Shown piece by piece: positions 894-52,562 of a stretch of 64,000 bases of DNA; the first letter of the stretch is position 1, and each line of letters opens with the position of its first letter. A program made the translations under genes and the position numbers. Origin of the DNA: a virus (taxonomy: Duplodnaviria > Caudoviricetes). Where the stretch lies: IMG/VR virus record IMGVR_UViG_3300031911_000003, positions 11,196-75,195 of that record. One strand, 5' to 3'. Under the pieces are notes generated by a model. That model made no database searches. It was not told where the DNA came from and saw nothing but the letters and a program-made list of their open reading frames with translations.

Positions 894-1093
894 GGTAGAG
901 ATGGTGAAGAGGAGAATTCTCAGATGGGAAGAGACAGCACGATAAAGATGGCTCGCGGGATACTTCGCTTAGAGCGACGAAACAATCCGAAAGCTACTTC
1001 ACAGCACCTACACTCGCTAGCGCACAAGCTGACGCGCAGCCTTCGTGAGGCGCTCCGCTCGCGAACGATCCAGCGCATCGTCGGAGATGTCTA

Positions 1094-1372
1094 ATGGCGT
1101 ACGAATACAAGGGCGTGAAGTGCGACACGTTGGAAGAGCTCTTGAAGCTGCAAGAAGCGGAGCGCACGAAGGCTTCTTCGCAGGCGGTTCGAATTGAGCA
1201 CGCCGAGGCGAAGGATCGAAAACAGACGCGACCAGCGAAATCTTCACAGAAGCGAATCGAATGCGACCACCGCTATGTTTATGACGGCCTCGGCGGAGGT
1301 CACAACGAGCAGTACGTCCACAAATGTTCCAAGTGCGGAGATTCTAATTGGTTTTCGGAGCCGCATCGCTAG
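1094..1372 (+). CDS. Hypothetical protein with C-terminal Cys/His zinc-ribbon
   Basis: 92 aa, start overlaps an upstream stop (TAATG), abuts the next gene; C-x-H...C-x2-C pattern. Confidence 0.55.
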   Translation: MAYEYKGVKCDTLEELLKLQEAERTKASSQAVRIEHAEAKDRKQTRPAKSSQKRIECDHRYVYDGLGGGHNEQYVHKCSKCGDSNWFSEPHR

Positions 1373-2089
1373 ATGGACGAACTCTTCGAGAGCATCGCGA
1401 AGGTGCAGGAGTCAATCGACAGGCGCAGCACGTCGGTAAACTACCGCGCGCTTTACCCCGCGACGATCATCTTCACCGACGGCGAGCTTGCGACCGTCGA
1501 GGCGCAGCTCGGCGCGACGATGATGACGCTCAGCGACTGCAAGGTGCGGCGCGAGGCGGGCTTGAAGAACGAGGCGACGGAAGGCAGCCCCTGCTTCGTC
1601 GGGTGGGAGGGTGGCGATCCGGCGCGGCGCTTCGTCCTCGTCGGCAGCTTCGGCGGCACTTCGGTGAAGTGGACTATCTCGGCGTCCGGCAGCGTCGTGT
1701 TCGACGCTCCGGAGACGAATGCCAAGCACGATCTCGTCTCGGAGCACGAGGTCGGGCAGTCAGCAGGTCCGCTCGGACTCGTGCCGGGCGTGAACGTGAA
1801 CCCGGCGACGTCCTCCGCGAAGGGAGACGACGCGGCCTTCGACCTCGAGCTGCAGCCCGTCGACAACACGAAGCCCATGGGGCCGCTGCTCGCCATCGTG
1901 ACGTTTGGCCGCGCATTCGGCAGCACACCCAAGGCTGTGCTGCAGGTGAAGGACTTCATCACTGCTCCGACGAGCGCGTACGATGTCAAGTATTCAACTA
2001 CACCGATCTCGATCTCGATCACTGGAACCTTCCCGAATCCAACCGGCAAAACGGTCATAACGGCGTTCATCCGAGAGAATAAGCCGTGA
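1373..2089 (+). CDS. Baseplate central spike / gpV-like protein
   Basis: N-terminal OB-fold signature 'GSPCFVGWEGGDPARRFVL' (G..v.V.F.gGDp..P); lies beside the hub and gp25-like genes. Confidence 0.7.
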   Translation: MDELFESIAKVQESIDRRSTSVNYRALYPATIIFTDGELATVEAQLGATMMTLSDCKVRREAGLKNEATEGSPCFVGWEGGDPARRFVLVGSFGGTSVKWTISASGSVVFDAPETNAKHDLVSEHEVGQSAGPLGLVPGVNVNPATSSAKGDDAAFDLELQPVDNTKPMGPLLAIVTFGRAFGSTPKAVLQVKDFITAPTSAYDVKYSTTPISISITGTFPNPTGKTVITAFIRENKP

Positions 2090-2202
2090 TCCTCTTCGGC
2101 GGATCTGAGGTGTGGAAGACGAGCTCGCTCACGCGCCTGATGCTCCGCTTCTGGGACGCGATCGACGACGAGTGGCTGCGCCTGGCGGGCTACGTTTCCT
2201 GA
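2086..2202 (+). CDS. 38-aa micro-ORF whose first 45 nt are an exact copy of the AAA ATPase Walker A region
   Basis: GTGA overlap with the gpV stop; VILFGGSEVWKTSSLTRLMLRFWDAIDDEWLRLAGYVS*; 2086-2130 is identical to 58794-58838. Confidence 0.4.
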   Translation: MILFGGSEVWKTSSLTRLMLRFWDAIDDEWLRLAGYVS

Positions 2203-2214
2203 CCATCTTCCGTC

Positions 2215-2883: not shown

Positions 2884-3018
2884 AATAGCCTGAGCGCCCT
2901 CCCTTACACGAATGATCGAGCAGGTCAGCAACAGCCCCTGAACCTCAATCGTCTTCGAGCCTGATCGCGTAACCGCCTCGTAATTGCAGTAACTTCAACA
3001 TTCTCACCATCTCCTCTT

Positions 3019-3498: not shown

Positions 3499-3507
3499 AC
3501 ATGGCTC

Positions 3508-4886: not shown

Positions 4887-4890
4887 GCGT

Positions 4891-7582: not shown

Positions 7583-7594
7583 GACGAGAGATGG

Positions 7595-8320
7595 TCAGGT
7601 CAGCGACGACTTGTAGAAGGCCGCGCCCTCGACGAAGTAGCGGATCTCATCCGCGTAGGTGAACCACTCGCCGGACTCGCGCAGGTGCGCGAACCGACGG
7701 TGCAGCGTCGTCTCTAGTTCGGTGCCTCCTGGCAGCGTCAGGAGCAGCGTGAGCTTAACGGAGGCCGACGTCTGAAGGGTGTCGAAGCGCTTCTCAACGT
7801 TGGAGCTCGTCCCGATCTTCAGCTTGCCGTCGGCGCTGAGCACGCAATAGACGCACTCACCGCCCTGGCTCAGCTTGTCGTCGGCCGCAGCGCGCCTGGC
7901 GCGCTCCACAGAGCGGTAGCGCTGCGTCTCTTGCCGCAAGAAGGCGTCTCGCAGCGCGCCATATTCTGCCGCCTCGTCGTCTCGTAGATCGGGAACTAAT
8001 TCGTCGGCGTCCCGCACCGCCTGACCCGAGAACCGATCGAGCAGGCGCGCCGCGAAGTTGATTGCCGTGCTCTTGCAGTCGCACCTGTGTTCGCCGCCGC
8101 AGGGACACCGCAGGATGAGAGTCTTGTCGACGCGCCGGACCTCGCAGCTTTGGCCCCGCACAGACAGGCGGTCGCTCCCCAGTCCTGTCGCCGACGAGCC
8201 GCAGGGCAGCGCGATATCGGCTCGATCTCGGGCCGCCCGCGCGAAGCAGGTGTGTTTGAGCACCCAACGCGCTTGCTTTTCTAAGAAAGGTCGGAAGTTG
8301 TGACTGTATCTGTGGTCCAC
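7595..8320 (-). CDS. T5orf172/GIY-YIG-type nuclease domain protein with Cys-rich N-terminus
   Basis: C-terminal VYCVLSADGKLKIGTSSNVEKRFDTLQ...ELETTLHRRFAHLRESGEWF. Confidence 0.85.
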   Translation of the reverse strand: MDHRYSHNFRPFLEKQARWVLKHTCFARAARDRADIALPCGSSATGLGSDRLSVRGQSCEVRRVDKTLILRCPCGGEHRCDCKSTAINFAARLLDRFSGQAVRDADELVPDLRDDEAAEYGALRDAFLRQETQRYRSVERARRAAADDKLSQGGECVYCVLSADGKLKIGTSSNVEKRFDTLQTSASVKLTLLLTLPGGTELETTLHRRFAHLRESGEWFTYADEIRYFVEGAAFYKSSLT

Positions 8321-10433: not shown

Positions 10434-10491
10434 GATGCGGATGGTAGGAGGTACCAGATGACAGACAAATCAACGACTCAAGGATTTAAAA

Positions 10492-11284: not shown

Positions 11285-14125
11285 TTACACTCCCACTGTG
11301 AAGGTGTCTGAGATCGTGACCGCGAAGCCGATGGTTCCATCGAGCTTGAGCACCTTGGCGAGCGGCACCATGGTGAGCGACCAGGCGACGGTCAGCGTTC
11401 GCGCGGTCTGCTCGATGCGCGAGACGCCGAAGGTGAAGGCCGACACGTGGTTCACGCCGTTGTCGTTGATGAGGCCTCCGTTGTTGAGATCGCCCCGCAC
11501 GCGTCGCTCGATCTGCTGCGCCTGCACCTCGGCGAGCGTGCCCGTCGCAGGATCGGTCAGCACGTTGGCGTTCAAGATGACGGCCAAAGAGCGATTGACG
11601 CGGCGGAACGCCCTGTTCATGACGCGCCGTCGCTCCCAGAAGATGAAGTCGTTGCCGTCGTCTACGAGGTTCAGCGTCTGCCGGATGAATACGCCATCGT
11701 ACTCGACGAGCGTACGGCCCGTGGTGACGTTCTGCGCGTGCAGCTCGAGGAGCGCCGAATCCGACTCCCACAGCGCGGCCCGCTCCTCGGTGCCTTCGGC
11801 TACGGTGTGGAGTCCCGTACCGGGGATCGCGAACTGGGTGCCGTCGGCTGTGAGTACGCTGCAGAGCGTCTGGTTCGGCGACTGGCTGATCACTACGTTC
11901 ATGCAGCGCGCGAGATCCAGACACGCCCGGCTCTTCTGCATCTGGCAGCCGTACAGCGTCACGATCGTGTCCTGCTCACCTCCCGCGTAGTTGACGATGC
12001 CGCCCGAGCTGCGCGGCGAGGGCAGCGCGGCGTTGAAGTTCGCGGCCCACAAGAGGTCGTCAGACTGCAGCTGCGTCACGCGGTAGAGGCCCTGCACGGT
12101 TCCCCAGAGCGGCACCTTCTTGCTGTCCTTGACGTCGCGGAGCCACGCCTCGAAGACCTGGTAGGTGGCGTTGTCGCAGTCGTCCTGTACAAGGTGGACG
12201 TGCTCGATGTTCTGTAGGGTCTTCAAGTACGTCGACTTCAGCGTCTCGAGCGCGGCGGAGAGTCCCGCCAGGTCGAAGCGCGGCGGCGTCGTGTAGCTCG
12301 TCCACTCGTCTCCCGCCTCGACGGCGACGGGCAGCGAGACGAACTCATCCCACGCTCCAGCGATCCCGAGGCCCGTCCCGGTGACGGTTGGCGCCGTCAC
12401 GAGCGCCAACACGGAGGCGGGCGCGGTGCCGTAGAGGGTCACGAGGTCGTTCGGCGTCGAGGTTTGCGCGCCGTTGGTGTCGGTGGCGAGCGTTACCGTG
12501 ACGTCGAGCCCCGCAGCAGTGATGCCCGCGGCGGTGCTCTGACCCGAGGCGACTTGACGGACGCGGACACCCGGTTTCTTGGCCGTCCAGAGCGTACCGC
12601 CGTTCGGCGCGAGCCCCGGCCCAGCACTGGCGACGAGCCCTAGGCCCGTGCCTACGGTGTCCACTGCGTTTACGAGGAGCCGCGCGGCGAGCGTGCCGGC
12701 CGAGACGTCCGTCTCGAAGAAAGCCTTCGCGGCGGCTCCCGTCGTCGTCGCGGCGGCGTCCACACCGCCCGCGAGCGGCGTCGCCCCGTGCGTGTCGCCC
12801 GGCGCGGCGAGGACGTTGCCGTTCGTCCCGCCGGTAGCGGTGACGCTGCCGAACGTCGTGCTGACTGGGAAATGGGCCTTGACGTTGGCGACGGTAGTCA
12901 CGCCGTCGTCGTAGTGGACGGTGATCGCGTTGCCGATGACAGACACGGCGTCTGTCCCATCCTCCACGAATGCCACGGTGATCGAGTTTCCGCCGGCGCC
13001 GGCCGTCGCAGAAGCGAACGTCAGCCCAGCGAGGTTGCCGCCGAAGCCCGCGTAGCTCGCCGCCACCGCGCCGCTCGTCGCGGTGGTGAAGGTGACGGCC
13101 GAGCCAACGACGCCGAAGCTCGGCGTCGCGTTGTCCGTCGTCGGGACATCGACCTCGATCGAGGCTCCGGCTGTGGCGAACGTCCAGACGGTGTCCCCGT
13201 TGACGGTCGCGCCCGCCGCGCGATAGGCACCGTAGAGCGTCTTGGCGACGGTGCCCTGAGCAAAAGTCGCGCGGATGCCGGTGTGCCAGCGGGTGAATCC
13301 GCCCGGATGGGTGTACAGGTCCAGCTCGCCCAACTGCGGGATCGTGAAGGCGGGGGACCACGTCACACCGTCGTCCGCCGACCAGCGCACCTGCGGCTGC
13401 TGCGCGCCAGAGACGGTGATCTGCCCGCCGCGCGTCGACTGGAAGCGCAGGTGGTCGAAGCGGTCTAGCGGCCCGGCGTACTCGAAGCTGAGAGCCGTCG
13501 TGCCGACGGGGTCGACTGGGGCGCCGCCCGAAGTCTGCGTGCGGTAGCGCACCATGGCCTTCACGCGCTCGCCGGCCGCGGTGCCGAAGGTACCGGGGCC
13601 GTTCACGGCGTAGGCCGCCTGCCGCGCCTGCCCGGCCTCGTCGAGGTAGTCGACGACGGCGACGTGTGCGACGGTGCCGGCGCCGTGCGTGCTCGTGAGC
13701 GGGAGCGGTGATGGGGGCGTCGCGAACCCGCCCTGGCGATCGACAGCCGCACCGCCGGGGATCGGGTCGGGAGCGGCGGCGAGCCCATCGAAGGTGGCCG
13801 CCGCGAGCGACAAGACCGAAGGCGATGGGGCGGAACCCGCGGGGCGCTTGACGACGGAGCCGAACGTCCCCGGCTCGGCGGCCAGCACCTGGAAGCCGTA
13901 GACCGTGCGGTTGCAGTTCGCGATGTGCGGCCCGCTGTCGCTCGCGAGGGGGCCGACGCCGAGGCGGTTCACGGTCGCAAGTTCCCGCATGACGACGGGC
14001 TTGCCAACGATGTACGCCGAGGCGACGCCGATCTTCAGGATAGTGCCTTCCTGCGTGTCGGCTACGGTGGACAGGTTGCCGTTGAGCTCCCTGATGTTCA
14101 AGGCCGGGTTCGGAGTGCCGCTCAT
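11285..14125 (-). CDS. Contractile tail sheath protein
   Basis: 946 aa; sheath C-terminal domain 'ERRRVMNRAFRRV...IERRVRGDL...LTVAWSLTMVPLAKVLKLDGTIGF'; followed by the tube gene. Confidence 0.88.
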   Translation of the reverse strand: MSGTPNPALNIRELNGNLSTVADTQEGTILKIGVASAYIVGKPVVMRELATVNRLGVGPLASDSGPHIANCNRTVYGFQVLAAEPGTFGSVVKRPAGSAPSPSVLSLAAATFDGLAAAPDPIPGGAAVDRQGGFATPPSPLPLTSTHGAGTVAHVAVVDYLDEAGQARQAAYAVNGPGTFGTAAGERVKAMVRYRTQTSGGAPVDPVGTTALSFEYAGPLDRFDHLRFQSTRGGQITVSGAQQPQVRWSADDGVTWSPAFTIPQLGELDLYTHPGGFTRWHTGIRATFAQGTVAKTLYGAYRAAGATVNGDTVWTFATAGASIEVDVPTTDNATPSFGVVGSAVTFTTATSGAVAASYAGFGGNLAGLTFASATAGAGGNSITVAFVEDGTDAVSVIGNAITVHYDDGVTTVANVKAHFPVSTTFGSVTATGGTNGNVLAAPGDTHGATPLAGGVDAAATTTGAAAKAFFETDVSAGTLAARLLVNAVDTVGTGLGLVASAGPGLAPNGGTLWTAKKPGVRVRQVASGQSTAAGITAAGLDVTVTLATDTNGAQTSTPNDLVTLYGTAPASVLALVTAPTVTGTGLGIAGAWDEFVSLPVAVEAGDEWTSYTTPPRFDLAGLSAALETLKSTYLKTLQNIEHVHLVQDDCDNATYQVFEAWLRDVKDSKKVPLWGTVQGLYRVTQLQSDDLLWAANFNAALPSPRSSGGIVNYAGGEQDTIVTLYGCQMQKSRACLDLARCMNVVISQSPNQTLCSVLTADGTQFAIPGTGLHTVAEGTEERAALWESDSALLELHAQNVTTGRTLVEYDGVFIRQTLNLVDDGNDFIFWERRRVMNRAFRRVNRSLAVILNANVLTDPATGTLAEVQAQQIERRVRGDLNNGGLINDNGVNHVSAFTFGVSRIEQTARTLTVAWSLTMVPLAKVLKLDGTIGFAVTISDTFTVGV

Positions 14126-14131
14126 GCCTCC

Positions 14132-14149
14132 CGATGGTCGGGACCATCC
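14132..14149. promoter_or_regulatory. Pair of divergent ACCATC late boxes
   Basis: CGATGGT-CGGG-ACCATCC; 6 nt to the sheath ATG (minus) and 5 nt to ATG 14155 (plus). Confidence 0.75.
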
Positions 14150-14496: not shown

Positions 14497-16050
14497 ATGG
14501 CCGAGAAGCTAGCCGTAGTCCTCGTCGACCCGGCGACCGGTCTGCCATACGTCGCGATTCCGGTCACTGTCGGGGCAGGCATCAATCGCGAGACGCAGGG
14601 GGATATAACCTCGACGCAGAGCTTCGAGGTCAACACCGCGGCCTGCGGGACGGCTCGCATCGAGATCACAGACACGGATCCCATGCTGCCGTGGGCCGGC
14701 ACGATCCGCTTCGAATACACGATCAACAACGGGACGACGTGGAACCCCCTTGCGATGGATCCGGACGGCGGCGGGGGGCCAGTCTCTCAAACGACCGCCA
14801 ACGGCGAGTGGTCCACCGAAGTCAGCGCTTACGGCAAGATCCGCGCAATCGGCGACACGGTGAGCGCCAACAGCGCCCGCGTATACCTCTCTGCCTCGAC
14901 AGCGACCTCGACCGTCGTGCTCGGCATGCCCCTTCCTGCTGGCAACAGCACTATCGGCAAGGTGAAGGTCACAGATGGCACAGACGACCTCGCGATAGAC
15001 GGGTTGGGTCGCGCAGCAGTTCAGAATCCGCCGAACCTCGACGCTGCGCTGTCCTCGCGCGCCACTGAGGTGACGCTGCAGACCGTAGCGAAGGAAACGA
15101 CTCTGTCGGCGCAACTCGACGCCAAGACCTCAACTCTGGCCAGGGAGTCAGGCGGGAACCTCGCGGCCTCCGCGAGTTCCCTGGCTTCGATTGACGGCAA
15201 GTTCACAAACCCCTTGCCGGTGTCTGCCGCCTCGCTGCCTCTACCCTCCGGAGCCGCCAAGGACGCGACGCTGACGAGCGGAGATGCTTTCGTGCGCCTA
15301 ACGTCCGATAAGACGAATCCGGCCGTGGTGGCCAACAGCGCGCCGTCGGGCACCGAATACGCTCTCGTCACGCGCAACATCCCGAGCGGGACGCAGTCAG
15401 TGAGCGGCCCGCTCACCGACGCGCAGCTGCGAGCCCTCGCAGTGCCTGTCTCCGGTACACTGTCCGTCTCCAACACCTTCGCGCTAGACGCCACGCTCGC
15501 CAAGCTCACCGTGAGCCAGGGCGCGAGCCTGGGCAGCAACACGCAGGCGCTCGTCGGCGCGTCCGTCACTACGGCGGCTCCAGCCTACTCTACGGGCCAG
15601 ATCTCGCCGCTCAGCATAAAGACGGACGGCTCGCTGCGCACCGCCGACTCCCAGATCGGCATCGCGGGCTCGCCCCACGCCGCCGTGTTCAGCGTCCAAG
15701 GCGTATCGGGCGGGACGGTCGTTCCGATCGGGCAGGCCGTGGCATCAGCCCTCAACGCGACCATGGTAGGTGGTGGTGCTTCAAAAACGGTCATATCCTC
15801 GGCGACGACGACGCAGGTGAAGTCAGGCACGGGCGTGCTGTACGCGATCGTTTATGACGCCACCATCGGGTTAAACGTCGTAGGCTACGATGATGTCGGG
15901 GGCGGCACGGCCAACCAGTTCATTGCGCGGTCGACTACCGTCACATCTGGCTCGATAGAGTTCGGGCCGTTCGGCGTCTCATTCTCGAACGGGCTGAAGA
16001 TCGTCACGACGGGTGGCGTCTCCATCTTCGTCGTGGTAATCTATCGCTGA
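14497..16050 (+). CDS. Putative tail fibre / virion structural protein
   Basis: 517 aa, Ala/Thr/Ser/Gly-rich with beta-sandwich-like termini; in a late unit. Confidence 0.55.
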   Translation: MAEKLAVVLVDPATGLPYVAIPVTVGAGINRETQGDITSTQSFEVNTAACGTARIEITDTDPMLPWAGTIRFEYTINNGTTWNPLAMDPDGGGGPVSQTTANGEWSTEVSAYGKIRAIGDTVSANSARVYLSASTATSTVVLGMPLPAGNSTIGKVKVTDGTDDLAIDGLGRAAVQNPPNLDAALSSRATEVTLQTVAKETTLSAQLDAKTSTLARESGGNLAASASSLASIDGKFTNPLPVSAASLPLPSGAAKDATLTSGDAFVRLTSDKTNPAVVANSAPSGTEYALVTRNIPSGTQSVSGPLTDAQLRALAVPVSGTLSVSNTFALDATLAKLTVSQGASLGSNTQALVGASVTTAAPAYSTGQISPLSIKTDGSLRTADSQIGIAGSPHAAVFSVQGVSGGTVVPIGQAVASALNATMVGGGASKTVISSATTTQVKSGTGVLYAIVYDATIGLNVVGYDDVGGGTANQFIARSTTVTSGSIEFGPFGVSFSNGLKIVTTGGVSIFVVVIYR

Positions 16051-17168: not shown

Positions 17169-17184
17169 GCGAGAGGATGGTGGG

Positions 17185-17801: not shown

Positions 17802-18501
17802 GTACCGTGCGGTTGAACTTGCTGCGCACGATGGGCGCGCTGATGATGACCGTCATCTGCCACACGAGGCCACGGTCGCCGGGCCTGTCCTCGACGTAGC
17901 CACCATTGCGCGCCGTGAACCCCTCACCTAGCCGCTCGGGCTGCGAGCGCTCTAGGTCGTGGGCGCAGCTCGCGATCCAGTGGGCAAGCAGGAATGTGTC
18001 GCCCCAACTGTTACCCCACACGAGCACGGTCCACGGGAGGAGCAACACGCCCGTCCTCGTGTACGGGAAGTCCGCCTGCGAGCTCTCGCTAGTCAGGCCG
18101 AGTAGCGGGTAGGCGGCGCCGGGTCCGATCCTGTCGGCCGGCAAGTCGTCCTGTCGCCTGCTCGTACCAATGCGGTCGGGAGCGCCGCGGTAGCTGGCGT
18201 CAGGGAAACGAGGAGGTGTCCACAGGACGCTCTGCGGCGCGTTCTGGGTGCTCGGCCAGCGCGCCCCGACGAAGTAGTGCCCTGCCGTCGTGCGGGTGGC
18301 CTGCCTCTCGCCGCCCGGCCCCGTGTAGCTCCCAAGCTCCCATCGCTCGTTCAGGTGCGGCTGCCTCGGTTGCTCGCGCGTCCCAGTATGAGGGTAGGCT
18401 AAAGGTGGACAGATGTCGCTCACCGCTGACATGATCCGGGCGATGTGGGGCAACTCTACGCCGTCGTACTCAGGAAGCGCGTCAGGGCTCGTTTCAGGCA
18501 T
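17719..18501 (-). CDS. Probable tail completion/terminator protein
   Basis: Follows the head-tail adaptor; 'WTVLVWGNSWGDTFLLAHWIAS...LVWQMTVIISAPI' fits a tail-terminator-type fold. Mostly positional. Confidence 0.45.
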   Translation of the reverse strand: MPETSPDALPEYDGVELPHIARIMSAVSDICPPLAYPHTGTREQPRQPHLNERWELGSYTGPGGERQATRTTAGHYFVGARWPSTQNAPQSVLWTPPRFPDASYRGAPDRIGTSRRQDDLPADRIGPGAAYPLLGLTSESSQADFPYTRTGVLLLPWTVLVWGNSWGDTFLLAHWIASCAHDLERSQPERLGEGFTARNGGYVEDRPGDRGLVWQMTVIISAPIVRSKFNRTVPTADAGSGEWEDPPGALVSPQEGEPGP

Positions 18502-19113: not shown

Positions 19114-19146
19114 GCCCGAGATGGTGGCGAGCCGCGCGCGCTCTGA

Positions 19147-19666: not shown

Positions 19667-19754
19667 TCTATATTCTACTCCATCTACTACACCATTAACT
19701 AAATATAAGAAATATAAGAAGAATATAAGAGGGAGAAGAAAGGGAGGAGTGCAG
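19667..19754. repeat. 88-bp AT-rich direct repeat, copy 1 (origin-like)
   Basis: TCTATATTCTACTCCATCTACTACACCATTAACTAAATATAAGAAATATAAGAAGAATATAAGAGGGAGAAGAAAGGGAGGAGTGCAG is identical to 57344-57431. Confidence 0.93.
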
Positions 19755-20040: not shown

Positions 20041-20069
20041 TTGACCTATCGCACGCCTAAGTATAACCT
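20041..20069 (+). promoter_or_regulatory. sigma70-type promoter, leaderless geometry
   Basis: TTGACC-N17-TAACCT-N6-ATG(20076). Confidence 0.7.
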
Positions 20070-20075: not shown

Positions 20076-20618
20076 ATGCTGAGTATCTGTGTGACGGGCC
20101 ACAGGCCCGACAAGCTCGGCGGCTACGACGCCGCGAATCCGCTGCGGCGGGCGATCCGCGAGGAGTTCAAAGAGAGGCTACTGTGCCTCGTCGGCGCGCA
20201 CCTGCTCGAGGCGGGCAGCGCCGAGTGCGAGGTCTACTGCGGCATGGCGCAGGGTTTCGACCAGGACGCGGCGTGCGCCTGCATCCAGGCCGACGTGCCC
20301 TTCGTAGCCTGCGTGCCCTTCGCCGGGCAGGAGCTCGTGTGGACGCCTGAGGCGCAGCGCGACTACCGCCTGATACTCTCTAGAGCGAAGCGTGTGGAGG
20401 TGCTCGCACAGAAGCCGGCGACGCGCACAGCCGCGGTGAGTCTGCTTTACGTCCGCAACCACTTCATGATCGAGAGCTGCGACGTTGTTGTCGCATGCTG
20501 GAACGGCACCTTCGGTGGGACGTACGAGACGGTGAAGTACGCGCAGCGCCTAGGCAAGCCACTGCACGTCATCGACCCGCGAGCGCTGGCGAATCGAGAG
20601 GACAACCGTGGTAACTAG
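20076..20618 (+). CDS. SLOG superfamily protein (YspA/DUF1273-like)
   Basis: VTGHRP, GMAQGFDQ, PFAGQE..W, RNHFMIE, WNG..GGT..TVKYA motifs. Confidence 0.9.
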   Translation: MLSICVTGHRPDKLGGYDAANPLRRAIREEFKERLLCLVGAHLLEAGSAECEVYCGMAQGFDQDAACACIQADVPFVACVPFAGQELVWTPEAQRDYRLILSRAKRVEVLAQKPATRTAAVSLLYVRNHFMIESCDVVVACWNGTFGGTYETVKYAQRLGKPLHVIDPRALANREDNRGN

Positions 20619-21372: not shown

Positions 21373-22485
21373 TTAGACTGGGCACAGCACACCTCTCGTT
21401 TCTACCTGGAAACGCTGCTCCTCGCGCAGCTCGACAAAGAACCACAGCACGCCGCACAGGGCTAGCGCTAGCGACACGCGTACGGCCAGCCGCGGCTCCG
21501 CGCTGCCAAGCACTCCGGCGAGTTTGCCTCCGACGGCCATAGAACTCAGCCACAGCGCTGTAGCGACGGACGCCAGGCGGCGCGGCACGAGCGACGTCGA
21601 GAGGTCTAGGCCGAGCGGTGAGATGAGGACTTCACCGACAGTCGCGAGGAAGTACCAGCCGACCAGGCCGGACATTGAAGAGTCGATGCAGAGCAGCACG
21701 AAGCCGGCAGCGAGCGACAGCATAGCTGCGACGAGGCGCGAGCGCAGGCCCGTCCAAGCGGCCAGCGGCGTGCAGAGAAGCAGCGCGGCGAAGACTGGGT
21801 TCAGGGTGCTGACGCTCTCGGGCATGTCGGCGCGCACGACATCGCGCGCCCACAGGACGAGGCTCGTCTGCTGCTGCTGGAACCCGGCGAAGAACAGCAC
21901 CGCGCCGACGAGCAGCACTGCCAATCGGCCCCACTGCGGGCGCTCGATGTGGTCTAAGACGCTCTCGGCGATGCTCTGCCGCGGTGGCGCGAGCTTCGAC
22001 CAGTTCGCGAGGAGCACGGCGACGCAGGCGGCAAGCGCCAGCGCGGCGGCGCCGAACGCAGCCGACCAGCCATAGCGGTAGTGCAGGTACCCACCGACTA
22101 GGGTGCTCGGCATCGAGCCGACTTGGATCGCGGCGTAGTAGCGACCGAAGGCGCGAGTGCGCTCTGGACCGACGGGGAACAGGCTCCCGAGCAGCGCCGA
22201 CAGGCACGGCTTGAACAGCCCGCAGCCGAGCGCGAGCAGCGGAATCGGCGAGCGGTCAAGTGCCGCCGTGGCGTACCCGCACAAGAGCAGCGACGCGCCA
22301 GCGAAAACTGTCGCGCGCAGCGAGAAGCGCCCGAGGTAGCCGCCGAGGAGCGGCGCGAGGTAGCCCCAGAAGAGCAGCGTGCCGACTTCGGCTGGCGAAC
22401 GCCACAGCGCGAGCGCACCCAAAAATAGATACCAGGCGAAGCGCTCTAGAGCGATGGCTGCGAGGATTGCGCGGTAGGCAATCAT
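21373..22485 (-). CDS. POT/PTR2-family proton-dependent oligopeptide transporter (MFS), compact
   Basis: ALERFAWY (ExxERFxYY-like), GLFKPCLSALLGSLF, AFGRYYAAIQVG and GEVLISPLG motifs; many TMs; ATGA-coupled start. Confidence 0.88.
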   Translation of the reverse strand: MIAYRAILAAIALERFAWYLFLGALALWRSPAEVGTLLFWGYLAPLLGGYLGRFSLRATVFAGASLLLCGYATAALDRSPIPLLALGCGLFKPCLSALLGSLFPVGPERTRAFGRYYAAIQVGSMPSTLVGGYLHYRYGWSAAFGAAALALAACVAVLLANWSKLAPPRQSIAESVLDHIERPQWGRLAVLLVGAVLFFAGFQQQQTSLVLWARDVVRADMPESVSTLNPVFAALLLCTPLAAWTGLRSRLVAAMLSLAAGFVLLCIDSSMSGLVGWYFLATVGEVLISPLGLDLSTSLVPRRLASVATALWLSSMAVGGKLAGVLGSAEPRLAVRVSLALALCGVLWFFVELREEQRFQVETRGVLCPV

Positions 22486-22697
22486 TGCTTCTCTTCTTTC
22501 TTTCCAAAAGCCAGCCAGCACGGCGATACGCCGAGGGCTTCGGCGAGCCTGCGCACCTGCTCGACGCTGGCAGCATTTATACCTTGTTCAATTTGATGGA
22601 TCGTCGTGAAGCTTGGGATTCCCGCGCGCTGCGCGAGATTGCGCAGCGACAGCCCCTTTTCGAGACGAGTAGCCTTGAGGCGCGCGGCGACGCTCAT
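22482..22697 (-). CDS. XRE-family HTH regulator
   Basis: RLKATRLEKGLSLRNLAQRAG...IHQIEQG...LAEALGVSPCWL. Confidence 0.9.
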   Translation of the reverse strand: MSVAARLKATRLEKGLSLRNLAQRAGIPSFTTIHQIEQGINAASVEQVRRLAEALGVSPCWLAFGKKEEKQ

Positions 22698-26307: not shown

Positions 26308-26337
26308 TGGACACAAAACGTCAATCTGCGGTAGCGT
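26308..26337 (+). promoter_or_regulatory. sigma70-type promoter, near-leaderless
   Basis: TGGACA-N18-TAGCGT-N8-ATG(26346). Confidence 0.5.
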
Positions 26338-32596: not shown

Positions 32597-32679
32597 ACGA
32601 GAGATGGTCAGGTCAGCGACGAGCAGAGCTTCAGTGTGTTCGCGTTACTCGCCGCTGTCGGTGAACCCGTTCCACGACC

Positions 32680-37096: not shown

Positions 37097-37120
37097 CCTG
37101 CGCCGAGATGGTCGCCGAGG

Positions 37121-37150
37121 TTGACATTTCGTACTCAGCCGCGCTACGCT
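37121..37150 (+). promoter_or_regulatory. sigma70-type promoter back-to-back with the late ACCATCT box
   Basis: TTGACA-N18-TACGCT; the minus-strand ACCATCT is at 37106-37112. Confidence 0.6.
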
Positions 37151-40491: not shown

Positions 40492-40634
40492 CGCCCGAAG
40501 ATGGTCGCCGAGCTTGACGCAGCGACGGGAAGTACCGAAGATACTTCAATGCTTGCAGCAAATATAACTTGCGACACCTATGTAGGTGGTTTGTTCATAA
40601 GCTTGTGTGAAGACGCAAGCATTCGCGCTGACTT

Positions 40635-42042: not shown

Positions 42043-43425
42043 ATGCTTGTGGACTTCGTGAAGCTCCACCTCCACCCCTACCCGCCGCACCGCAACTCGT
42101 TGCTCGATCTTCCAGCTACCGGCCTTGTCGCGATCTGCGGCAAGAACGGGCACGGCAAGTCGAGCTTCGTCGAGGCTTACGCGGCCTGCGTCTGGGGGCG
42201 TTCGCTGCGCGGTGCCGGCCCGTGGCGCGGCGCTGACACAAAGCTGACGCTGGACGTCGGTGGATACCGCGTCGAGCGCACGCCCGAGAGCCTACTCCTC
42301 AACGGTGCCAGCGCGCTCAAGCCCTCCAAGAAGCAGGCAGATGTGACGGCGCTGTTTGGCGACTTTCAGACCTGGCAGCGCACGCGCGTCTTCGACGCGG
42401 ACCTCACCGCGCGCTTCGGCGCCGCGTCCGACGGCGACAGGAAGAAGCTGCTCGAGCAGCTACTCGGACTCGAGAAGCTAGACGACGGGTTGCGCCGCTG
42501 TCGCGAGGACAAGCGAGAAGCTGAGCGGCAGCTAAAGAGCGTCGAGCAGGCGCTTTACGTCTCGGAAGAGCCAGACCCGACGCCCGTCGACTTCGATGTG
42601 GAGGCGCTGGCGCGCTCGACGACTCTGCTCGAAGACGTCGAGCGCGCCGCGGCGAAGATGGCCAAGGAGGAGGGGCGCCTTCTCGCCACACTGCAGAGTG
42701 CGGAGCGAAAGATCGGTGCGCTGAGCTCCGGTAGGTGCCCGACCTGCGAGCAGGGCATCCCAACGAAGCACGTCGAGGCGCTCAAGACAGCGGCCGAGGA
42801 GACGAGGATGGAGCGCGCGGCGACCTCTCGCGAGCGCGCTGCGGCGGCCGAAGAGAGCACCCGACTACTCGAGCAGGTGCGGAAACTGCGCGCCGAGCAG
42901 GCCGCCGCCGAGCGCGCAGTCGAAGCAGCGAAGCTCCGCGCAGAACGACAGGCGAAGCGCGCGCCGCTAATCGAGCAGCGAGAGCAGTACGCGGCGTCGC
43001 TCCGCCAGCTATCGGCCGTGGATGCTTTCATCGTCAACGCGCGTCCGAAGCTCCTTCGCTCCTCCCTGGCCATCTTGGAGGCTGCGGCGTCGGCGTGGCT
43101 GCCGAATCTCTCGATAGGTGATGACGGCTCAATATTGCACGGCGTCAGGACTTACAAGGAGCTCAACGAGGGACATCGCCGCCTCTGCGATATGGCCGTG
43201 CTGCTTGGACTATCGGGCATGGGCGATGCAAAAGCCAAGGGGCCGGTCTGGCTCGATGGTGCGCTTCATGGCCTCGACGACGAGCGGCAGGACGGCATGG
43301 CGGCGCTCCTCGAGACGATCGCGCAGCGGGAGCTCGTCATCGTGCTCACCTGCCAAGAAGACGCGGCGCAGCGGCTGCTTGGACTCAAGATCCGAGTAGT
43401 TGACGGACGGATCGTAAATCAGTAG
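42043..43425 (+). CDS. SbcC/Rad50-like ABC ATPase
   Basis: GKNGHGKS, coiled coil with CPTC zinc hook, degenerate signature LNEG, Walker B/D-loop WLDGALHGLD. Confidence 0.9.
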   Translation: MLVDFVKLHLHPYPPHRNSLLDLPATGLVAICGKNGHGKSSFVEAYAACVWGRSLRGAGPWRGADTKLTLDVGGYRVERTPESLLLNGASALKPSKKQADVTALFGDFQTWQRTRVFDADLTARFGAASDGDRKKLLEQLLGLEKLDDGLRRCREDKREAERQLKSVEQALYVSEEPDPTPVDFDVEALARSTTLLEDVERAAAKMAKEEGRLLATLQSAERKIGALSSGRCPTCEQGIPTKHVEALKTAAEETRMERAATSRERAAAAEESTRLLEQVRKLRAEQAAAERAVEAAKLRAERQAKRAPLIEQREQYAASLRQLSAVDAFIVNARPKLLRSSLAILEAAASAWLPNLSIGDDGSILHGVRTYKELNEGHRRLCDMAVLLGLSGMGDAKAKGPVWLDGALHGLDDERQDGMAALLETIAQRELVIVLTCQEDAAQRLLGLKIRVVDGRIVNQ

Positions 43426-43434
43426 AGTTGACGC

Positions 43435-45379: not shown

Positions 45380-45442
45380 TTTACAAATTGTACTTGCATG
45401 GCTTCGAGCTCTAATTTACGATTTGTATCAGAGGTGCTGTAC

Positions 45443-47678: not shown

Positions 47679-47726
47679 GAACGATCACGCAGAGATCTGA
47701 AGGGAATTGGAGCCGCGGCGGAGTCC

Positions 47727-48017
47727 GTGCGGTTCGCTAAACCGAAGGTGCAGCGCCGGGTCGCGAAGAATCCGCACTACGCCGATCGCTTCCGCGGGGC
47801 GCACGCGGCGAAGGTCGCAGCCGCGCAGAAGCGACGCGCCGAACTGCTCGCGAAGCAAGCAGAAGAGGCGCGCAAGGCCCAAGAGAAGGTCGCAGCTTCA
47901 AAAGAGACGGCAGATAACGCTCGAATCGTACGAAGCCTGACCATCCGCTCCACTGAACGCTTGACAGGTCGTACCCGAATCTGCAACAGTTCGAGCTGTG
48001 GAAACCACGCAGCATGA
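47727..48017 (+). CDS. Basic hypothetical protein
   Basis: K/R/A-rich 96 aa. Confidence 0.4.
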   Translation: MRFAKPKVQRRVAKNPHYADRFRGAHAAKVAAAQKRRAELLAKQAEEARKAQEKVAASKETADNARIVRSLTIRSTERLTGRTRICNSSSCGNHAA

Positions 48018-49092
48018 TCGCAGTAGTACGTTCGCCAGATACTTCAAGCGCTGGCTCGGGCGCCGCCTAGTCGAGCGCCCGAAGCCGCAGCCTCCCGCGC
48101 CACCGCCGAAGCCCAGCAAGCACGCGCGCCTGCGTGCGGAGCACAGGCACCTCCACATCTCGGCCGATCTACGAGCCCGCGCGACGAGCAGGCGACAGCT
48201 CGCGCCAATCGATCCGCAACTCGCGCGCATCATCGCAGAGCGCCGGATGGGTCGGCACCCACGCACCCAGAAGCCTCACCCACTGCCCGCGAGCTGCCTG
48301 AAGAAGTGCGGCGTCCGAGACTGCGCGCACGCGCAACCTCGCGCACTGCTCAGACTCCGCGACGAGTACGCCGCCGCGAACTACGATCTAGCGCATCGAG
48401 CGGCGGACAAGCAGTGGCAGCGCAACCAGCACCTCGAGCGGGAGATTGTGCCGTGCGTCTACCACAACACCGCCGAACCGAAGAAGTGCCGCTGCCGAGG
48501 GCGCCGGGAGTACCTCTGCCAACCCGACCTCGAGCATCTCGCGTACATCGGTCTGCTCGACGCGATCCTCTACTTCGACAAGGACAAGGCCGGCTGTCTC
48601 TCGTCTTACGCTGTCCACAAGATGAAGTTCTCGATGCTGACGCTTTTGCGTCAAACGCCTGTCTACTACCCGCCAGACCTGCTCCGCGACCGCCGAGACG
48701 TGGGCGCGCTGCGCAAGACTCTGTGTCGAGAGCCGACCGAAGCTGAGATGGTGGTTAAGCTGGCGGAGCGGGGTGCCTGCACTGCTGAGCGAGCGCGGCT
48801 CGCGATGAACTGCTACTACGGCAATGAGCGGAAGAGCGTCGAGGAGCTGCATGAGCAGTACTTTGGTCGGACCTCGCGGGAGGATCGCCGCGCACGTAGG
48901 TCGCGCGGGGAGACGTTCGTCGAAAACCTGTCCATCGAGCAACCCCGCCGTGGAGAGGATTCAGACGGGGACGTGATCGAGGCCATTGCGTCGCTGCCCG
49001 CGGAGCTGCGAGCAGACGCGCAGAGGGCTCTCGGCGGGCGATCGAAGCTATCCGACGCCACTCTCGGCGCGCTGCGCGAGGCGCTGCTCTAG
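47998..49092 (+). CDS. Phage sigma70-family factor (regions 2-3, truncated region 4)
   Basis: ANYDLAHRAA (2.1), DLEHLAYIGLLDAILYFD (2.2), LSSYAV (2.3), LCREPTEAEM (3.0). Confidence 0.85.
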   Translation: METTQHDRSSTFARYFKRWLGRRLVERPKPQPPAPPPKPSKHARLRAEHRHLHISADLRARATSRRQLAPIDPQLARIIAERRMGRHPRTQKPHPLPASCLKKCGVRDCAHAQPRALLRLRDEYAAANYDLAHRAADKQWQRNQHLEREIVPCVYHNTAEPKKCRCRGRREYLCQPDLEHLAYIGLLDAILYFDKDKAGCLSSYAVHKMKFSMLTLLRQTPVYYPPDLLRDRRDVGALRKTLCREPTEAEMVVKLAERGACTAERARLAMNCYYGNERKSVEELHEQYFGRTSREDRRARRSRGETFVENLSIEQPRRGEDSDGDVIEAIASLPAELRADAQRALGGRSKLSDATLGALREALL

Positions 49093-50308: not shown

Positions 50309-52122
50309 TGAATCGAGTGCTTATCGACCAGCGACCGGAGGCCGTACGTTTTGAGCAGCGGATATTTCCCGAGTGCCGCAGCAACTACAGCCTTGCGCGA
50401 TGCCGGATCATCTGGTAGCCGCTGCGACAGCCAGCAAACTGCACGGTCTGTGTAGCGATGCGGCTTCGCTGCCCTCACGAGCAGTTGCGAAAGCGGGTGC
50501 TCGGCTCCAAGCGTTGCGGCTACCTTCGCCACATCGCTCTCGTCGACCTCACCGATCTCCGCCACCCAACGGAGCCGCTCGACGTCCTCGCGGGCGCCAG
50601 GCTGGCCAGCGAGCACTTCGGCGAGGACGGTCATCCACTGGCCGAGCTCGACGCCGACTCGCACCTTCTTGTAACCGTAGACTTCTGGCATCTCGAGGCC
50701 GAACGCACTGAGCAGGTCGCGGCACTCATGGATCTGGTGGTAGTTCGTGTCGAACCTGTCGAGGTGGACGTACAGGTCTTCAGGCTGCGGCGCGCGCTCT
50801 ACCGCCTCCCAGTTCGACGACAATGGGCGCTTGAACTCATAGGTGCAAAGTCTGAACATGCTGCGCCGCGCGTTCGGGTTCGCGCCGCGCCTGGGTGAGC
50901 GCTCTGGTCGCGTCCAAGACAGCTCCGAAGTCTTTACTATCGGGATGCCCTCGATGCCCGCAGCTCTGACAGCCGCCGCCACCGCGGCCTCTTCAGGTGG
51001 CCTGTGGTCATAGCCGTAGACGACGTAGTCCGTCGCTGACAGCGCGAAGCCTTTGAGTCCGCGCCTGTCGTCGCGCAGAACGATGCGCGCCGCATCGTCG
51101 AGCTCGATCGTTTCTCGCACCTTGCGACCGACTTTGAGTGTGAACGACCCTGAGATCGAGTATTTGCCGTTCACCCGCGGTATCAGCGGCAGGTCTAAGC
51201 CACCGTACTTCGACAGCGCGAGCTTCTGCGTCCACGGCGACAGCGATTCGACGCTGCGAATCAGCTCGAGCACGAAGCCGTCGATCGCCGCGCAGATCGC
51301 CGCTTCGAGAGCACCGCGCGTCTTCTCGCTGTACTTGAGCTGCTCGCGCGAGGCCGCGATGTGCAGCGCGCCGATCTCGAAGCGCAGCGCGCAGCCGACG
51401 TTTCGCGCGTAGTGTGGAAGCTTAAGCTGCGACAGGTCGATGGGATACGGCACGCAGCCCATGACTGCGGTCCACCTGCCGTACGGCTTTGGCGTCCAGC
51501 TGACGTCGGGTAGTTTCGCGCAAATATCAGGCAGCGGGTCGAAGTACTTGAACAGGTTCTCGGCCTTAGACCCGAACTCGCCGAGGTCTTCCCGTCGCAC
51601 CGCCACCTGAATCTCGAGGCCGGTGTCGTCGCTGTCGAACTCGTCGAGAAGGCGAACCTCACCACGCTCGCTGACGTCGAGCGTGCAGACGTACGTGCGG
51701 CACTTGCCCTCGCAGCGCGACACGACGGTGAAGCTGTCGGCGTAGGCGAAACCGCTCTTGCTGCCAATACCGAGCATCCCGACCTGCCCGCTGTCCGCGC
51801 GCTTCGTCGAGGCGCCGTACTGCGTGAAGAGCTCGAACACCTCCCGCTTCGAGAGGCCGCGCCCGAAGTCGCGAATCGAGAGCGTCTGGTCCTCGAGCGT
51901 CGGCAGCCTGACTCGGATCGGCACGTCGCCCTTGCCCGCCTCGCGGTGCGCGTCCCAAGCGTTGGCGCCGTACTCGCGCAATACCGCCAACACCTTGTCG
52001 CTGTAGAGCGTGTCGCGCAGCACCGTCATGAGGTGTGCCTCGTCGCCGCGCGAGATGCCGAAGCCCGCTCGCTCGCCCGAGTCGCAGGAGTCGACGCTGC
52101 GGTCGAAGGTCTGCGGGATCAC
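50242..52122 (-). CDS. rIIA: rIIA-like protein (GHKL ATPase N-terminus)
   Basis: LYSDKVLAVLREYGANAWDAH, IRDFGRGL, YGASTK and GMLGIGSKS; GTGA-coupled start; precedes rIIB. Confidence 0.92.
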   Translation of the reverse strand: MIPQTFDRSVDSCDSGERAGFGISRGDEAHLMTVLRDTLYSDKVLAVLREYGANAWDAHREAGKGDVPIRVRLPTLEDQTLSIRDFGRGLSKREVFELFTQYGASTKRADSGQVGMLGIGSKSGFAYADSFTVVSRCEGKCRTYVCTLDVSERGEVRLLDEFDSDDTGLEIQVAVRREDLGEFGSKAENLFKYFDPLPDICAKLPDVSWTPKPYGRWTAVMGCVPYPIDLSQLKLPHYARNVGCALRFEIGALHIAASREQLKYSEKTRGALEAAICAAIDGFVLELIRSVESLSPWTQKLALSKYGGLDLPLIPRVNGKYSISGSFTLKVGRKVRETIELDDAARIVLRDDRRGLKGFALSATDYVVYGYDHRPPEEAAVAAAVRAAGIEGIPIVKTSELSWTRPERSPRRGANPNARRSMFRLCTYEFKRPLSSNWEAVERAPQPEDLYVHLDRFDTNYHQIHECRDLLSAFGLEMPEVYGYKKVRVGVELGQWMTVLAEVLAGQPGAREDVERLRWVAEIGEVDESDVAKVAATLGAEHPLSQLLVRAAKPHRYTDRAVCWLSQRLPDDPASRKAVVAAALGKYPLLKTYGLRSLVDKHSIQWLEYIRMTDTCDSRRRKIKSR

Positions 52123-52514
52123 TGCAGGTCCTCGTCTTCCCAACCTTCGCAGAGGTCGCAGAGCACGAAGAAGCCTGTAATACTTCGAGATGCCATACTT
52201 TCGGGGAGGCCGAACCAAGCATCGTTGAGCAGATCCAAAATTACAGACGCGGCACCCAGTCGAAGGGCTTCATCGTAGCGCTCGACGGGCTTACCTTCAA
52301 AATTCTGCTCGATGTCGTTGCAGATGACATTACAGGCGTCTTGCGCTGCTCGCGCAGTGACAGGTGTTGAAAGTTGCATCGCGCGTGCGGGCATTTCGAC
52401 CTGCAGTGGACCTACTGCGACGCTCACCTTCGATGCTGGGTGGTACTTCTCAACAATGGCACGCAGCGCGACGGCGTTCGCCTTAACTTTGTCAAACCAT
52501 TCAGCAGAATTCAT
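52119..52514 (-). CDS. Hypothetical protein
   Basis: 131 aa leading the rII operon. Confidence 0.55.
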   Translation of the reverse strand: MNSAEWFDKVKANAVALRAIVEKYHPASKVSVAVGPLQVEMPARAMQLSTPVTARAAQDACNVICNDIEQNFEGKPVERYDEALRLGAASVILDLLNDAWFGLPESMASRSITGFFVLCDLCEGWEDEDLQ

Positions 52515-52562
52515 CTCTAATCCTCCTCTACTGCCGACCATCCTCCTCGAAAGTACTACACT

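Follow-up and report, generated by a model that had tools for sequence, protein, structure and literature searches.

The phage analysed here is uncultured and has a 75-kb genome, of which we examined a 64,000-nt window (the whole stretch of DNA under analysis) plus the 11 kb to its left. The hexamer ACCATC lies shortly before the start codons of virion and lysis genes, as listed here with the number of nucleotides between the end of the box and the start codon. G001, which appears in the list, is a relative with ~50% protein identity and 54% GC, and L002, L017 and L018 are further relatives.

900..905, minus strand: ACCATC box, 6 nt to ATG 893 of a baseplate wedge/J-like gene that heads a leftward unit; box kept in the G001 ortholog
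2202..2207, plus strand: ACCATC box, 7 nt to GTG 2215; the box begins on the final A of the upstream gene's TGA stop
3006..3011, plus strand: ACCATC box, 7 nt to GTG 3019; box kept in the G001 ortholog
7590..7595, minus strand: ACCATC box, 7 nt to GTG 7582 of a tape-measure-like gene
10440..10445, minus strand: ACCATC box, 6 nt to ATG 10433, heading a leftward tail unit; TACCAT register
14133..14138, minus strand: ACCATC box, 7 nt to ATG 14125 of the sheath gene; back to back with the 14143 box
14143..14148, plus strand: ACCATC box, 6 nt to ATG 14155; 4 bp from the opposite-strand sheath box
17176..17181, minus strand: ACCATC box, 7 nt to ATG 17168
19120..19125, minus strand: ACCATC box, 6 nt to ATG 19113 of a Mu gp36-like/adaptor gene; box kept in the G001 ortholog
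32603..32608, minus strand: ACCATC box, 6 nt to ATG 32596 of a gene for a 344-aa late protein; box kept in the L002, L017 and L018 orthologs
37107..37112, minus strand: ACCATC box, 10 nt to ATG 37096 of a gene for a 567-aa head protein (weak major-head match)
40500..40505, minus strand: ACCATC box, 8 nt to ATG 40491 of the portal gene (PF06074)
52537..52542, plus strand: ACCATC box, 20 nt to TTG 52563 of TerL; the leader would be ~13 nt
57987..57992, plus strand: doubtful ACCATC site, 10 nt to GTG 58003; within the end of ORF 57575-58006, replication region
Genome positions 3900 (plus), 7333 (minus), 8240 (minus) and 9932 (minus): four further box sites, in the 11 kb left of the window

All 13 boxes listed by a previous sequence-only reading were found again, each at its position and on the coding strand. 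Our distances exceed its spacers by one nucleotide because it counted a 7-mer, and the TerL box, 20 nt from the TTG at 52563, is farther off, as it had said. Its gene names stand for the baseplate wedge, tape measure, sheath, adaptor (Mu gp36-like), portal and TerL, while 'hub', 'gp25-like' and 'chaperone' were not borne out by Pfam and PHROGs. The 26-nt stretch 7584-7609, which holds the 7590 box, is identical to 32597-32622, which holds the 32603 box. The sheath spacer contains GGAGG in the window; the G001 sheath ortholog keeps the box and loses GGAGG.

Enrichment and conservation of the box

The raw count of ACCATC in the window is only mildly in excess (29 versus 17.8 expected). Among hexamers in the 18 nt upstream of starts it ranks first, in 12 of 82 genes under the longest-ORF rule (P 1e-16) and in 16 of 82 with best-score starts (P 6e-24), the gene calls coming from our own codon-bias gene caller. 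A test free of any gene caller, in which an ATG or GTG 5-8 nt after the hexamer opens at least 100 codons, likewise places ACCATC no. 1 among 4096 hexamers (14 of 38 genome copies, P 3e-13). Each computational check proposed by the earlier reading, among them enrichment, position relative to starts and occurrence in related phages, gave a result in its favour. Altogether 16 of the 38 copies abut a start (P 1.5e-24), always on the coding strand, and the codon that follows in these 16 box genes is ATG or GTG, never TTG. The distance is mostly 6-7 nt, with the portal (8), the 37096 gene (10) and TerL as exceptions; of 36 non-redundant sites from the phage and its relatives, 27 have a distance of 6 or 7. 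The box precedes 15 of 45 late-module genes versus 1 of 37 other genes (P 5e-4); to its claimed absence from replication genes there is one doubtful exception, at 57987.

All six box positions are fixed, a single one-mismatch variant being found at starts. Of the 16 sites linked to a start, 14 have C or T right after the hexamer, versus 8 of the 22 others, which extends the box to ACCATCY. Eight ACCATCY copies, three of them antisense, are distant from starts, and for this reason the box alone may be insufficient. This counts against reading it as a promoter, as does the fact that boxes are not significantly more frequent at unit heads than in unit interiors (P 0.17).

Related phages, to which the sequence-only reading had pointed for confirmation, keep the box at orthologous late genes. 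In G001 ACCATC is the top hexamer upstream of starts (12 of 21 copies, P 3e-16), and in the pooled relatives it is again the top pre-start hexamer (12 of 138 genes, P 2e-13). Ten orthologous late genes retain it in flanking DNA that is not alignable; in G001 these include sheath, TerL, adaptor, baseplate and others, with the TerL box 6 nt upstream of a GTG. Upstream of the portal, 37096 and 32596 genes of relatives, the box forms an island of identity in unalignable DNA. Specifically, no relative has lost the portal box, even at 48% identity and with diverged flanks, the 37096 box is kept in five relatives, there at 7-8 nt, and alignments of the 32596-gene orthologs in L002, L017 and L018 begin at residue 1.

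Surroundings of the boxes and host-type promoters

Shine-Dalgarno 5-mers at -18 to -3 precede 17 of the 66 other genes and not one of the 16 box genes, in keeping with what had been claimed of the spacers; the non-box genes use AAGGAG or GGAGG. Equally in line with the earlier account, the sites share no -35: no position from -40 to -1 is conserved (<0.3 bit, 36 sites), and no k-mer in the regions before the boxes survives multiple-test correction. The late region shows no excess of sigma-70-like promoters (3 versus 2.6 expected). At -1, 25 of the 27 sites with a distance of 6-7 nt carry a pyrimidine, a preference not seen at -2 and -3, which agrees with the Y(-1)R(+1) start-site rule. In G001 the pyrimidine is weaker (4 of 8 new sites), a point against a promoter, and the same is true of the lack of a conserved T at -12 together with invariant -10 to -8, unlike ordinary sigma-70 -10 elements.

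The phage also has promoters of host type, with -35 and -10 elements, that abut start codons.

20041..20069, plus strand: host-type promoter, TTGACC, 17 nt, TAACCT, 6 nt, ATG 20076
26308..26337, plus strand: host-type promoter, TGGACA, 18 nt, TAGCGT, 8 nt, ATG 26346
37121..37150, plus strand: host-type promoter-like site, TTGACA, 18 nt, TACGCT; back to back with the 37107 box
40514..40542, plus strand: host-type early promoter, TTGACG, 17 nt, GAAGAT, 6 nt, ATG 40549 (66-aa ORF)
43400..43428, plus strand: host-type promoter, TTGACG, 17 nt, TAGAGT, 6 nt, ATG 43435 (dNMP kinase)
47961..47990, plus strand: host-type promoter of the sigma gene described below, TTGACA, 18 nt, AACAGT, 7 nt, GTG

In this phage 3 of 50 matches to such promoters lie 5-8 nt from starts versus 0.31 expected, and in the relatives 10 of 124 versus 0.53 expected (P 3e-10), with L028 carrying a repeated TTGCAA-16-TAGACT-6-ATG. 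Judged from this geometry, leaderless expression is a habit of the phage group. The sigma gene has equivalent host-type promoters in L022 and L018 too, making three lineages in all. In the nACCAT register the T of the box and the start codon are 7-8 nt apart, which exceeds by 1-2 nt the spacing in the host-type promoters of these phages (mostly 6), and this extra distance may mean leaders of 1-3 nt or a different register. TACCAT stands behind a -35-like hexamer in two cases, the clean one in L028 (TTGACA-18-TACCAT-7-ATG) and one with a weak -35 at 10440 in the window (TTGTCT-16-TACCAT-7-ATG), from which the box would appear to occupy the -10 slot.

These surroundings bear on the level at which the box acts. 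If it were transcribed, it could serve in the mRNA as a translation-initiation signal of a non-Shine-Dalgarno kind; its partner, at a constant spacing from the start codon, might be a phage translational activator or, through pairing, some part of the ribosome. A ribosome-binding element would also be expected to keep the fixed 6-7 nt, nine boxes lie within co-directional gene arrays (two of them just 12 nt past the upstream gene), and box genes without a Shine-Dalgarno would need another translation signal if their messages had leaders. Ordinary promoters at equal distance from starts in this phage group already explain genes that lack a Shine-Dalgarno, however, and the universal 3' end of 16S rRNA, with its CCUCC tail, to our knowledge holds no complement to ACCAUC. 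Boxes also head divergent units, with a pair at 14133/14143 separated by 4 bp and one in G001 by 2 bp; an mRNA signal there would require promoters within the opposing genes, and none is conserved. Further, the portal box is back to back with the 40514 early promoter, 8 bp from its -35, and relatives conserve GTCAA, the reverse complement of part of that -35, ahead of their portal box. With the L028 box filling a -10 slot after a perfect -35, we regard an mRNA signal as improbable. Cleavage of a polycistronic late RNA by an endonuclease right before the start codons would likewise yield fixed distance and strand specificity, but it leaves unexplained both the boxes at divergent unit heads without an upstream promoter and the -10-slot placement behind a -35, and the proteins searched revealed no nuclease with this function; we give this processing scheme hardly any credence. 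The boxes at divergent unit heads, where no other promoter fits, support a promoter at the DNA level.

A sigma-70-family protein encoded by the phage

One gene of the window is a candidate for the reader of such a promoter.

47998..49092, plus strand: sigma-70-family factor, candidate box reader (profile, Pfam and fold matches)

ORF 47998-49092 encodes a sigma-70-family protein that is conserved in relatives. A profile of 12 homologs matches sigma factors only in the PDB (FliA 2.9e-7), and Pfam Sigma70_r2 (PF04542) is found in 11 of the 12 homologs, the window protein alone being below Pfam thresholds. Its top fold matches are sigma factors throughout; in structural alignments the sigma-2 domain reaches Z 8-9, with an rmsd of 2.4-4.7 over 78-108 residues. 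On the N-terminal side of region 2 the protein has Cys-rich inserts. Pfam gave no region-4 match at E 0.1 in any of the 12 homologs; three C-terminal helices of high confidence (322-363) fall within full-length sigma alignments, but with rmsd >19. In PHROGs the sole match was phrog_351, 'RNA polymerase sigma factor' (E 3.5e-4); gp55 and gp33 gave none, in a scan that may miss distant kinship with gp55.

Homologs occur in the box-bearing relatives L018, L019, L022 and L024, of which L019, L022 and L024 are near-identical, and on contigs of 76,524 and 79,939 bp, the same sizes as the contigs of two portal homologs. The protein is tied to the box by co-occurrence only, which counts against the proposal made below and leaves room for another reader. 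The box could be a leaderless late promoter read by a host sigma, with or without a non-sigma phage co-factor, while the phage sigma serves another gene class. nACCAT retains two key -10 bases, TACCAT after a -35 resembles an ordinary promoter, and for Thermus phages it has been suggested that a phage factor alters the host polymerase for use at late promoters (bioRxiv 10.64898/2026.04.20.719267). Set against this, an invariant hexamer without T at -12, -35 or extended -10 points to a dedicated specificity, no other over-represented motif for the phage sigma to read was found in the phage and the pooled relatives, and the sigma gene is conserved wherever enough sequence of a box-bearing relative exists. 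We consider reading by a host sigma unlikely.

Proposed late promoter and known counterparts

We now put forward, as the explanation we find fairly probable, that the ACCATC box is a one-element late promoter giving leaderless messages and read by the phage's own sigma. The leaderless, phage-specific late promoter suggested by the sequence-only reading gains support from the position of the box, its conservation and its restriction to late genes; its action on DNA, the transcript start site and its reading by ORF 47998-49092 are what we infer from the sequences. ACCATC(Y) would be the sole specific element, a -35 being unnecessary, and would take the place of the -10 hexamer, with A at -11 and T at -7 in the nACCAT register. 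Host RNA polymerase would first read the early genes, the sigma gene among them, from ordinary -35/-10 promoters. The phage sigma would then displace the host sigma from the core enzyme, bind the box and melt the DNA, and initiation would occur at a purine 7-9 nt beyond the T, which places it on the first base (A or G) of the start codon or 1-3 nt upstream. Virion and lysis messages would hence have no leader, or nearly none, and no Shine-Dalgarno, and would be translated via the leaderless pathway, which the host must support.

A fuller version, for and against which we see the chances as even, is that the protein represents a new phage sigma family with a FliA/WhiG-like region 2, Cys-rich inserts and no recognisable region 4, which reads the invariant 7-nt ACCATCY, makes transcription begin at the start codon of ~15 late genes and, through mutually exclusive paired promoters, sets the early-to-late switch. 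As part of that joint reading, boxes back to back with early promoters or 2-4 bp apart would mean that a polymerase at one excludes the other, and ACCATCY, having no T at -12, would break the TANNNT rule.

T4 late promoters, TATAAATA, are recognised by gp55 together with gp33 and the sliding clamp. They share with our proposal a single near-invariant -10-region element without a -35 and a phage-encoded, highly diverged sigma (here a putative reader) acting before late genes on both strands. gp55 is small and of sigma region-2 type only, T4 late promoters are activated by clamp loading, and T4 late messages carry leaders and Shine-Dalgarno sites, unlike the messages proposed here. The nearest solved relatives of ORF 47998-49092 by sequence and fold are the sigma-28 factors FliA and WhiG, and like them it lacks, by alignment, the WW dyad of region 2.3-2.4. 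Sigma-28 promoters have a -35 TAAA and a -10 GCCGATAA; neither occurs here, the box being ACCATC with nothing conserved upstream. In leaderless genes of Actinobacteria (e.g. mycobacteria) and Deinococcus-Thermus the -10 box adjoins the ORF. These genes have the -10 6-8 nt before ATG/GTG and no Shine-Dalgarno, a rule to which the host-type promoters of this phage group conform; the bacterial genes use the housekeeping sigma and TANNNT, which the late box does not fit.

The sigmas of phiEco32 (gp36) and Salmonella phage 7-11 use single-element promoters, TAATGTATA / TGATGT (PMC4331800). Common to those phages and this one are a phage sigma distantly related to the sigma-A family and, for middle and late genes, a short promoter of one phage-specific box, with early genes on host-type promoters. 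Their motif is another one and is not described as abutting start codons (PMC4331800), and their structural genes form one large cluster, against many small units here. In Thermus phage Lalka27a the late promoters carry a -10 of their own, are paired back to back where genes diverge and produce leaderless transcripts, like those of YS40 (bioRxiv 10.64898/2026.04.20.719267). Both the distinct late -10 before many late genes scattered over both strands and the back-to-back late promoters in divergent intergenic regions have counterparts here in the boxes. The Lalka27a/YS40 motif is TAGGGT, which obeys TANNNT; position -25 is a conserved C there, and transcription begins 6 bp downstream of the motif (bioRxiv 10.64898/2026.04.20.719267); the box of our phage is ACCATC(Y), without T at -12, with nothing conserved upstream and with a slightly longer distance. 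A phage sigma is encoded here and none is reported for Lalka27a/YS40 (bioRxiv 10.64898/2026.04.20.719267), and the 5' ends of the Thermus phage were measured, whereas our start sites are derived from sequence.

One-box phage late promoters and leaderless phage messages have both been described before, so the general picture is unchanged; the proposed pair of motif and sigma is new. As a sigma/-10 specificity pair it could be used for studying the recognition of non-TANNNT elements by region 2. It also offers a ready promoter map and a testable cascade, from host promoter to phage sigma to ACCATC late genes, in a family of uncultured phages that has no cultured relative. The box also fixes the start codons of ~15 late genes, and the box genes hint at a host that translates leaderless messages well.

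Placement and make-up of the ACCATC box

The window, bases 11196-75195 of a single virus record of 75,195 bp (GC 63.5%), encodes a contractile-tail phage. Its recognised virion genes specify a baseplate wedge protein, the tape measure, a 946-aa sheath, a Mu gp36-like adaptor, a DUF935 portal and TerL, and the other recognised genes encode rIIA-like, primase, helicase, PolA, RNR, ThyX, dNMP kinase and SbcCD-like proteins, which, with an MFS transporter and two ORFs without assignment, make up the large ORFs. The sheath has no match in 50,697 phage records (tblastn), and no cultured phage matched it. A search for tRNA genes as pointers to the host came back empty, and a scan of genome contigs gave one 9.8-kb contig only, binned in an uncultured gammaproteobacterial MAG, which is too weak for naming a host. 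Two genes are listed with coordinates, the second in those of the whole record (L001):

Window 21373-22521 (-), POT/MFS-family transporter gene (PF00854, 2e-28; PF07690, 3e-16), an unusual auxiliary gene for a phage
L001 1242-2465 (+), PAPS-reductase-like gene near the left genome end (phrog_2302, 8.5e-75)

The sequence-only reading had placed ACCATC shortly before the start codons of late genes, and every box that it listed is confirmed. Tested genome-wide relative to starts, the position of ACCATC is far from random, while the raw count is only mildly raised (29 in the window versus 17.8 expected). When hexamers were tallied in the 18 nt before the starts of 82 genes, called with a purpose-made codon-bias gene caller, ACCATC was the most enriched, preceding 12 genes with longest-ORF starts (P 1e-16) and 16 with best-scoring starts (P 6e-24); the Shine-Dalgarno word AAGGAG was the next enriched class. 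In a caller-free test of all 4096 hexamers it again ranks first for an ATG or GTG 5-8 nt later that opens at least 100 codons (14/38 copies, P 3e-13). The 11 kb to the left of the window hold four further sites, one of them heading a small ORF with an endolysin two genes downstream. The proposed restriction to late genes is borne out, with boxes in 15 of the 45 genes of the virion and lysis modules versus 1 of 37 elsewhere.

The box hardly varies: a single one-mismatch variant occurs at starts, and C or T follows in 14/16 start-linked copies versus 8/22 others. Of the 27 sites with a spacing of 6-7, 25 have a pyrimidine immediately ahead of the start codon; positions -2 and -3 are not pyrimidine-rich. 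As had been claimed, the boxes come without a Shine-Dalgarno sequence, a properly spaced one preceding 0/16 box genes versus 17/66 other genes, and without a shared -35: no -35 or other upstream element is common to them, and nothing upstream is conserved. Terminator-like hairpins are not enriched.

Window 7584-7609 and 32597-32622 (-), before the tape-measure gene and the gene for a 344-aa late protein, share the same 26 nt, box included; either the promoter was duplicated here or this is a longer, strong form of it. In a fibre-like gene (L001 7325-7388, -), the ATG at 7388, preceded by GGAGGA, begins a lipoprotein signal (MNRVALAFLLALASC), and the same-frame ATG 7325 has an ACCATC box before it, within the coding sequence; either the gene has two isoforms or the box is there by chance.

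The box in related phages

As a single protein the portal had no match in IMG/VR, and an alignment-based scan was required; portal homologs then led to 20 related metagenomic loci. Pooling 12 of these loci (138 genes) again puts ACCATC first among the upstream hexamers (P 2e-13), and it is kept at orthologous late genes. Before the portal gene and the orthologs of the 37096 gene (a 567-aa head protein) and the 32596 gene (the 344-aa late protein), the six bases of the box are identical within DNA that otherwise does not align, among lineages at 36-58% protein identity. The start codons of these orthologs are fixed, since the protein alignments begin at residue 1.

A related IMG/VR record of 38.5 kb (G001; 54% GC), a 40%-complete fragment, was read whole. 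There 12 of the 21 copies of ACCATC stand next to long ORFs (P 3e-16), which are orthologs of the window's portal, head proteins, sheath, adaptor, baseplate, 3019 gene (a late gene starting GTG 3019), TerL and others. The TerL box lies 6 nt from the start in this record versus 20 nt in the window, and the pyrimidine signal before the start codon is weaker. The GGAGG in the window's sheath spacer is not kept in G001, so we reject it as a signal and regard it as incidental.

Three more distant loci (L026, L028 and L029; 39-44% portal identity) have no ACCATC at gene starts, except for one TACCAT promoter; they have many Shine-Dalgarno-led genes and strong host-type promoters abutting ATGs. In another locus (L018), three late boxes are each immediately preceded by a G/C-rich inverted repeat (CCCCAT...ATGGGG), at 12060-12112, 15995-16045 and 17990-18040; the repeats could terminate the units before them or serve as a regulator site specific to this lineage.

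Start-adjoining promoters and the promoter reading

In these same phages, ordinary -35/-10 promoters, which we call host-type, adjoin start codons at 5-8 nt.

Table. Host-type promoters in the window, as -35, spacer, -10, nt to start codon
ATG 20076: TTGACC-17-TAACCT-6-ATG
ATG 26346: TGGACA-18-TAGCGT-8-ATG
ATG 43435 (dNMP kinase): TTGACG-17-TAGAGT-6-ATG

Among relaxed promoter hits in the window, 3/50 abut starts versus 0.31 expected, and in the relatives 10/124 do so versus 0.53 expected (P 3e-10), the ten including three copies of TTGCAA-16-TAGACT-6/7-ATG in L028 with an A-rich stretch upstream. Such adjoining of ordinary promoters to start codons indicates that leaderless expression is a habit of this phage group. 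The strongest argument that the box is a promoter is thus one of analogy, in that it would hold the slot of the -10 hexamer in the start-abutting host-type promoters.

Two points weaken the promoter reading: boxes are not significantly commoner at unit heads than in unit interiors, and eight ACCATCY copies lie away from starts. We consider the alternative, that ACCATC is a translation signal acting at the RNA level, improbable given the -10 slot that the box shares with the ordinary promoters, and also because boxes head divergent units in which there are no other promoter candidates. Moreover, the boxes of the sheath gene and ORF 14155 stand back to back with 4 bp between them (two boxes in G001 with 2 bp), and the portal box is 8 bp from a divergent host-type -35 (TTGACG-17-GAAGAT-6-ATG 40549, driving a 66-aa ORF).

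Within the promoter reading, the register proposed earlier, nACCAT with A at -11 and T at -7, gains support from -35-like hexamers before TACCAT: a perfect TTGACA 18 nt before it in L028 and TTGTCT 16 nt before it at window 10440. Transcription prefers to start at a purine following a pyrimidine, and the pyrimidine before the start codon is consistent with such a start. Read this way, the box has its T 7-8 nt before the start codon versus mostly 6 in the host-type promoters, so that late messages may possibly carry leaders of 1-3 nt.

A conserved GTCAA upstream of the portal and capsid boxes was considered as part of the late promoter and rejected, as it corresponds to the -35 of a divergent host-type promoter read on the opposite strand; its conservation upstream of portal boxes in relatives is explained by the divergent promoter beside the portal box. 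At window 40500-40551 and 37107-37150, 8 bp separate late boxes (-) from the -35 hexamers of host-type promoters (+), forming compact back-to-back early/late promoter pairs. A perfect 88-bp AT-rich direct repeat occupies two large divergent intergenic regions (window 19667-19754 and 57344-57431), adjoins the early genes at 20076 and 57575 and has ATATAAGA units recurring within it; it could serve as an origin or in early regulation.

A candidate sigma factor and known systems

The candidate reader of the boxes is ORF 47998-49092 (+), which has 12 homologs. Searched against the PDB, the profile built from them hits sigma factors only (FliA at 2.9e-7, then WhiG, RpoS and SigA), and Pfam Sigma70_r2 is found in 11 of the 12. 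The predicted structure (mean pLDDT 68) likewise has fold matches to sigma factors only, the sigma-2 domain aligning at Z 8-9; region 4 is not recognisable by sequence and is ambiguous by fold. Homologs occur in L018, L019, L022 and L024, all four of which carry boxes, and further ones on contigs of 76,524 and 79,939 bp, the same sizes as two portal-homolog contigs. A search for the sigma in IMG/VR gave no match, and G001 lacks it but, as a 40%-complete fragment, is uninformative on co-occurrence. The candidate pairing of sigma and box is drawn from co-occurrence.

A host-type promoter abuts the sigma gene start in three lineages. From this promoter, the co-occurrence and the identity of the protein, we propose a cascade in which the host sigma would express the phage sigma, which in turn would read the late boxes. 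The cascade is consistent with our findings, and no phage RNA polymerase was found among the large ORFs.

One-box promoters in T4 are read by a phage sigma, and the ACCATC phage would be alike, its own pairing resting on co-occurrence. The likeness would extend to phiEco32 and 7-11, whose one-box promoters are read by phage sigmas (PMC4331800). In the Thermus phages Lalka27a and YS40, leaderless messages come from distinct late -10 elements (bioRxiv 10.64898/2026.04.20.719267), a combination that we infer for the ACCATC phage from its sequence. The strategy is hence already known, and what is new here is the motif, the sigma subfamily and the uncultured phage family.

An ACCATCC at window 47940-47945 lies 52 nt before the sigma gene's GTG 47998, upstream of that gene's host-type promoter, and could reflect late auto-activation via a leadered transcript, or chance.
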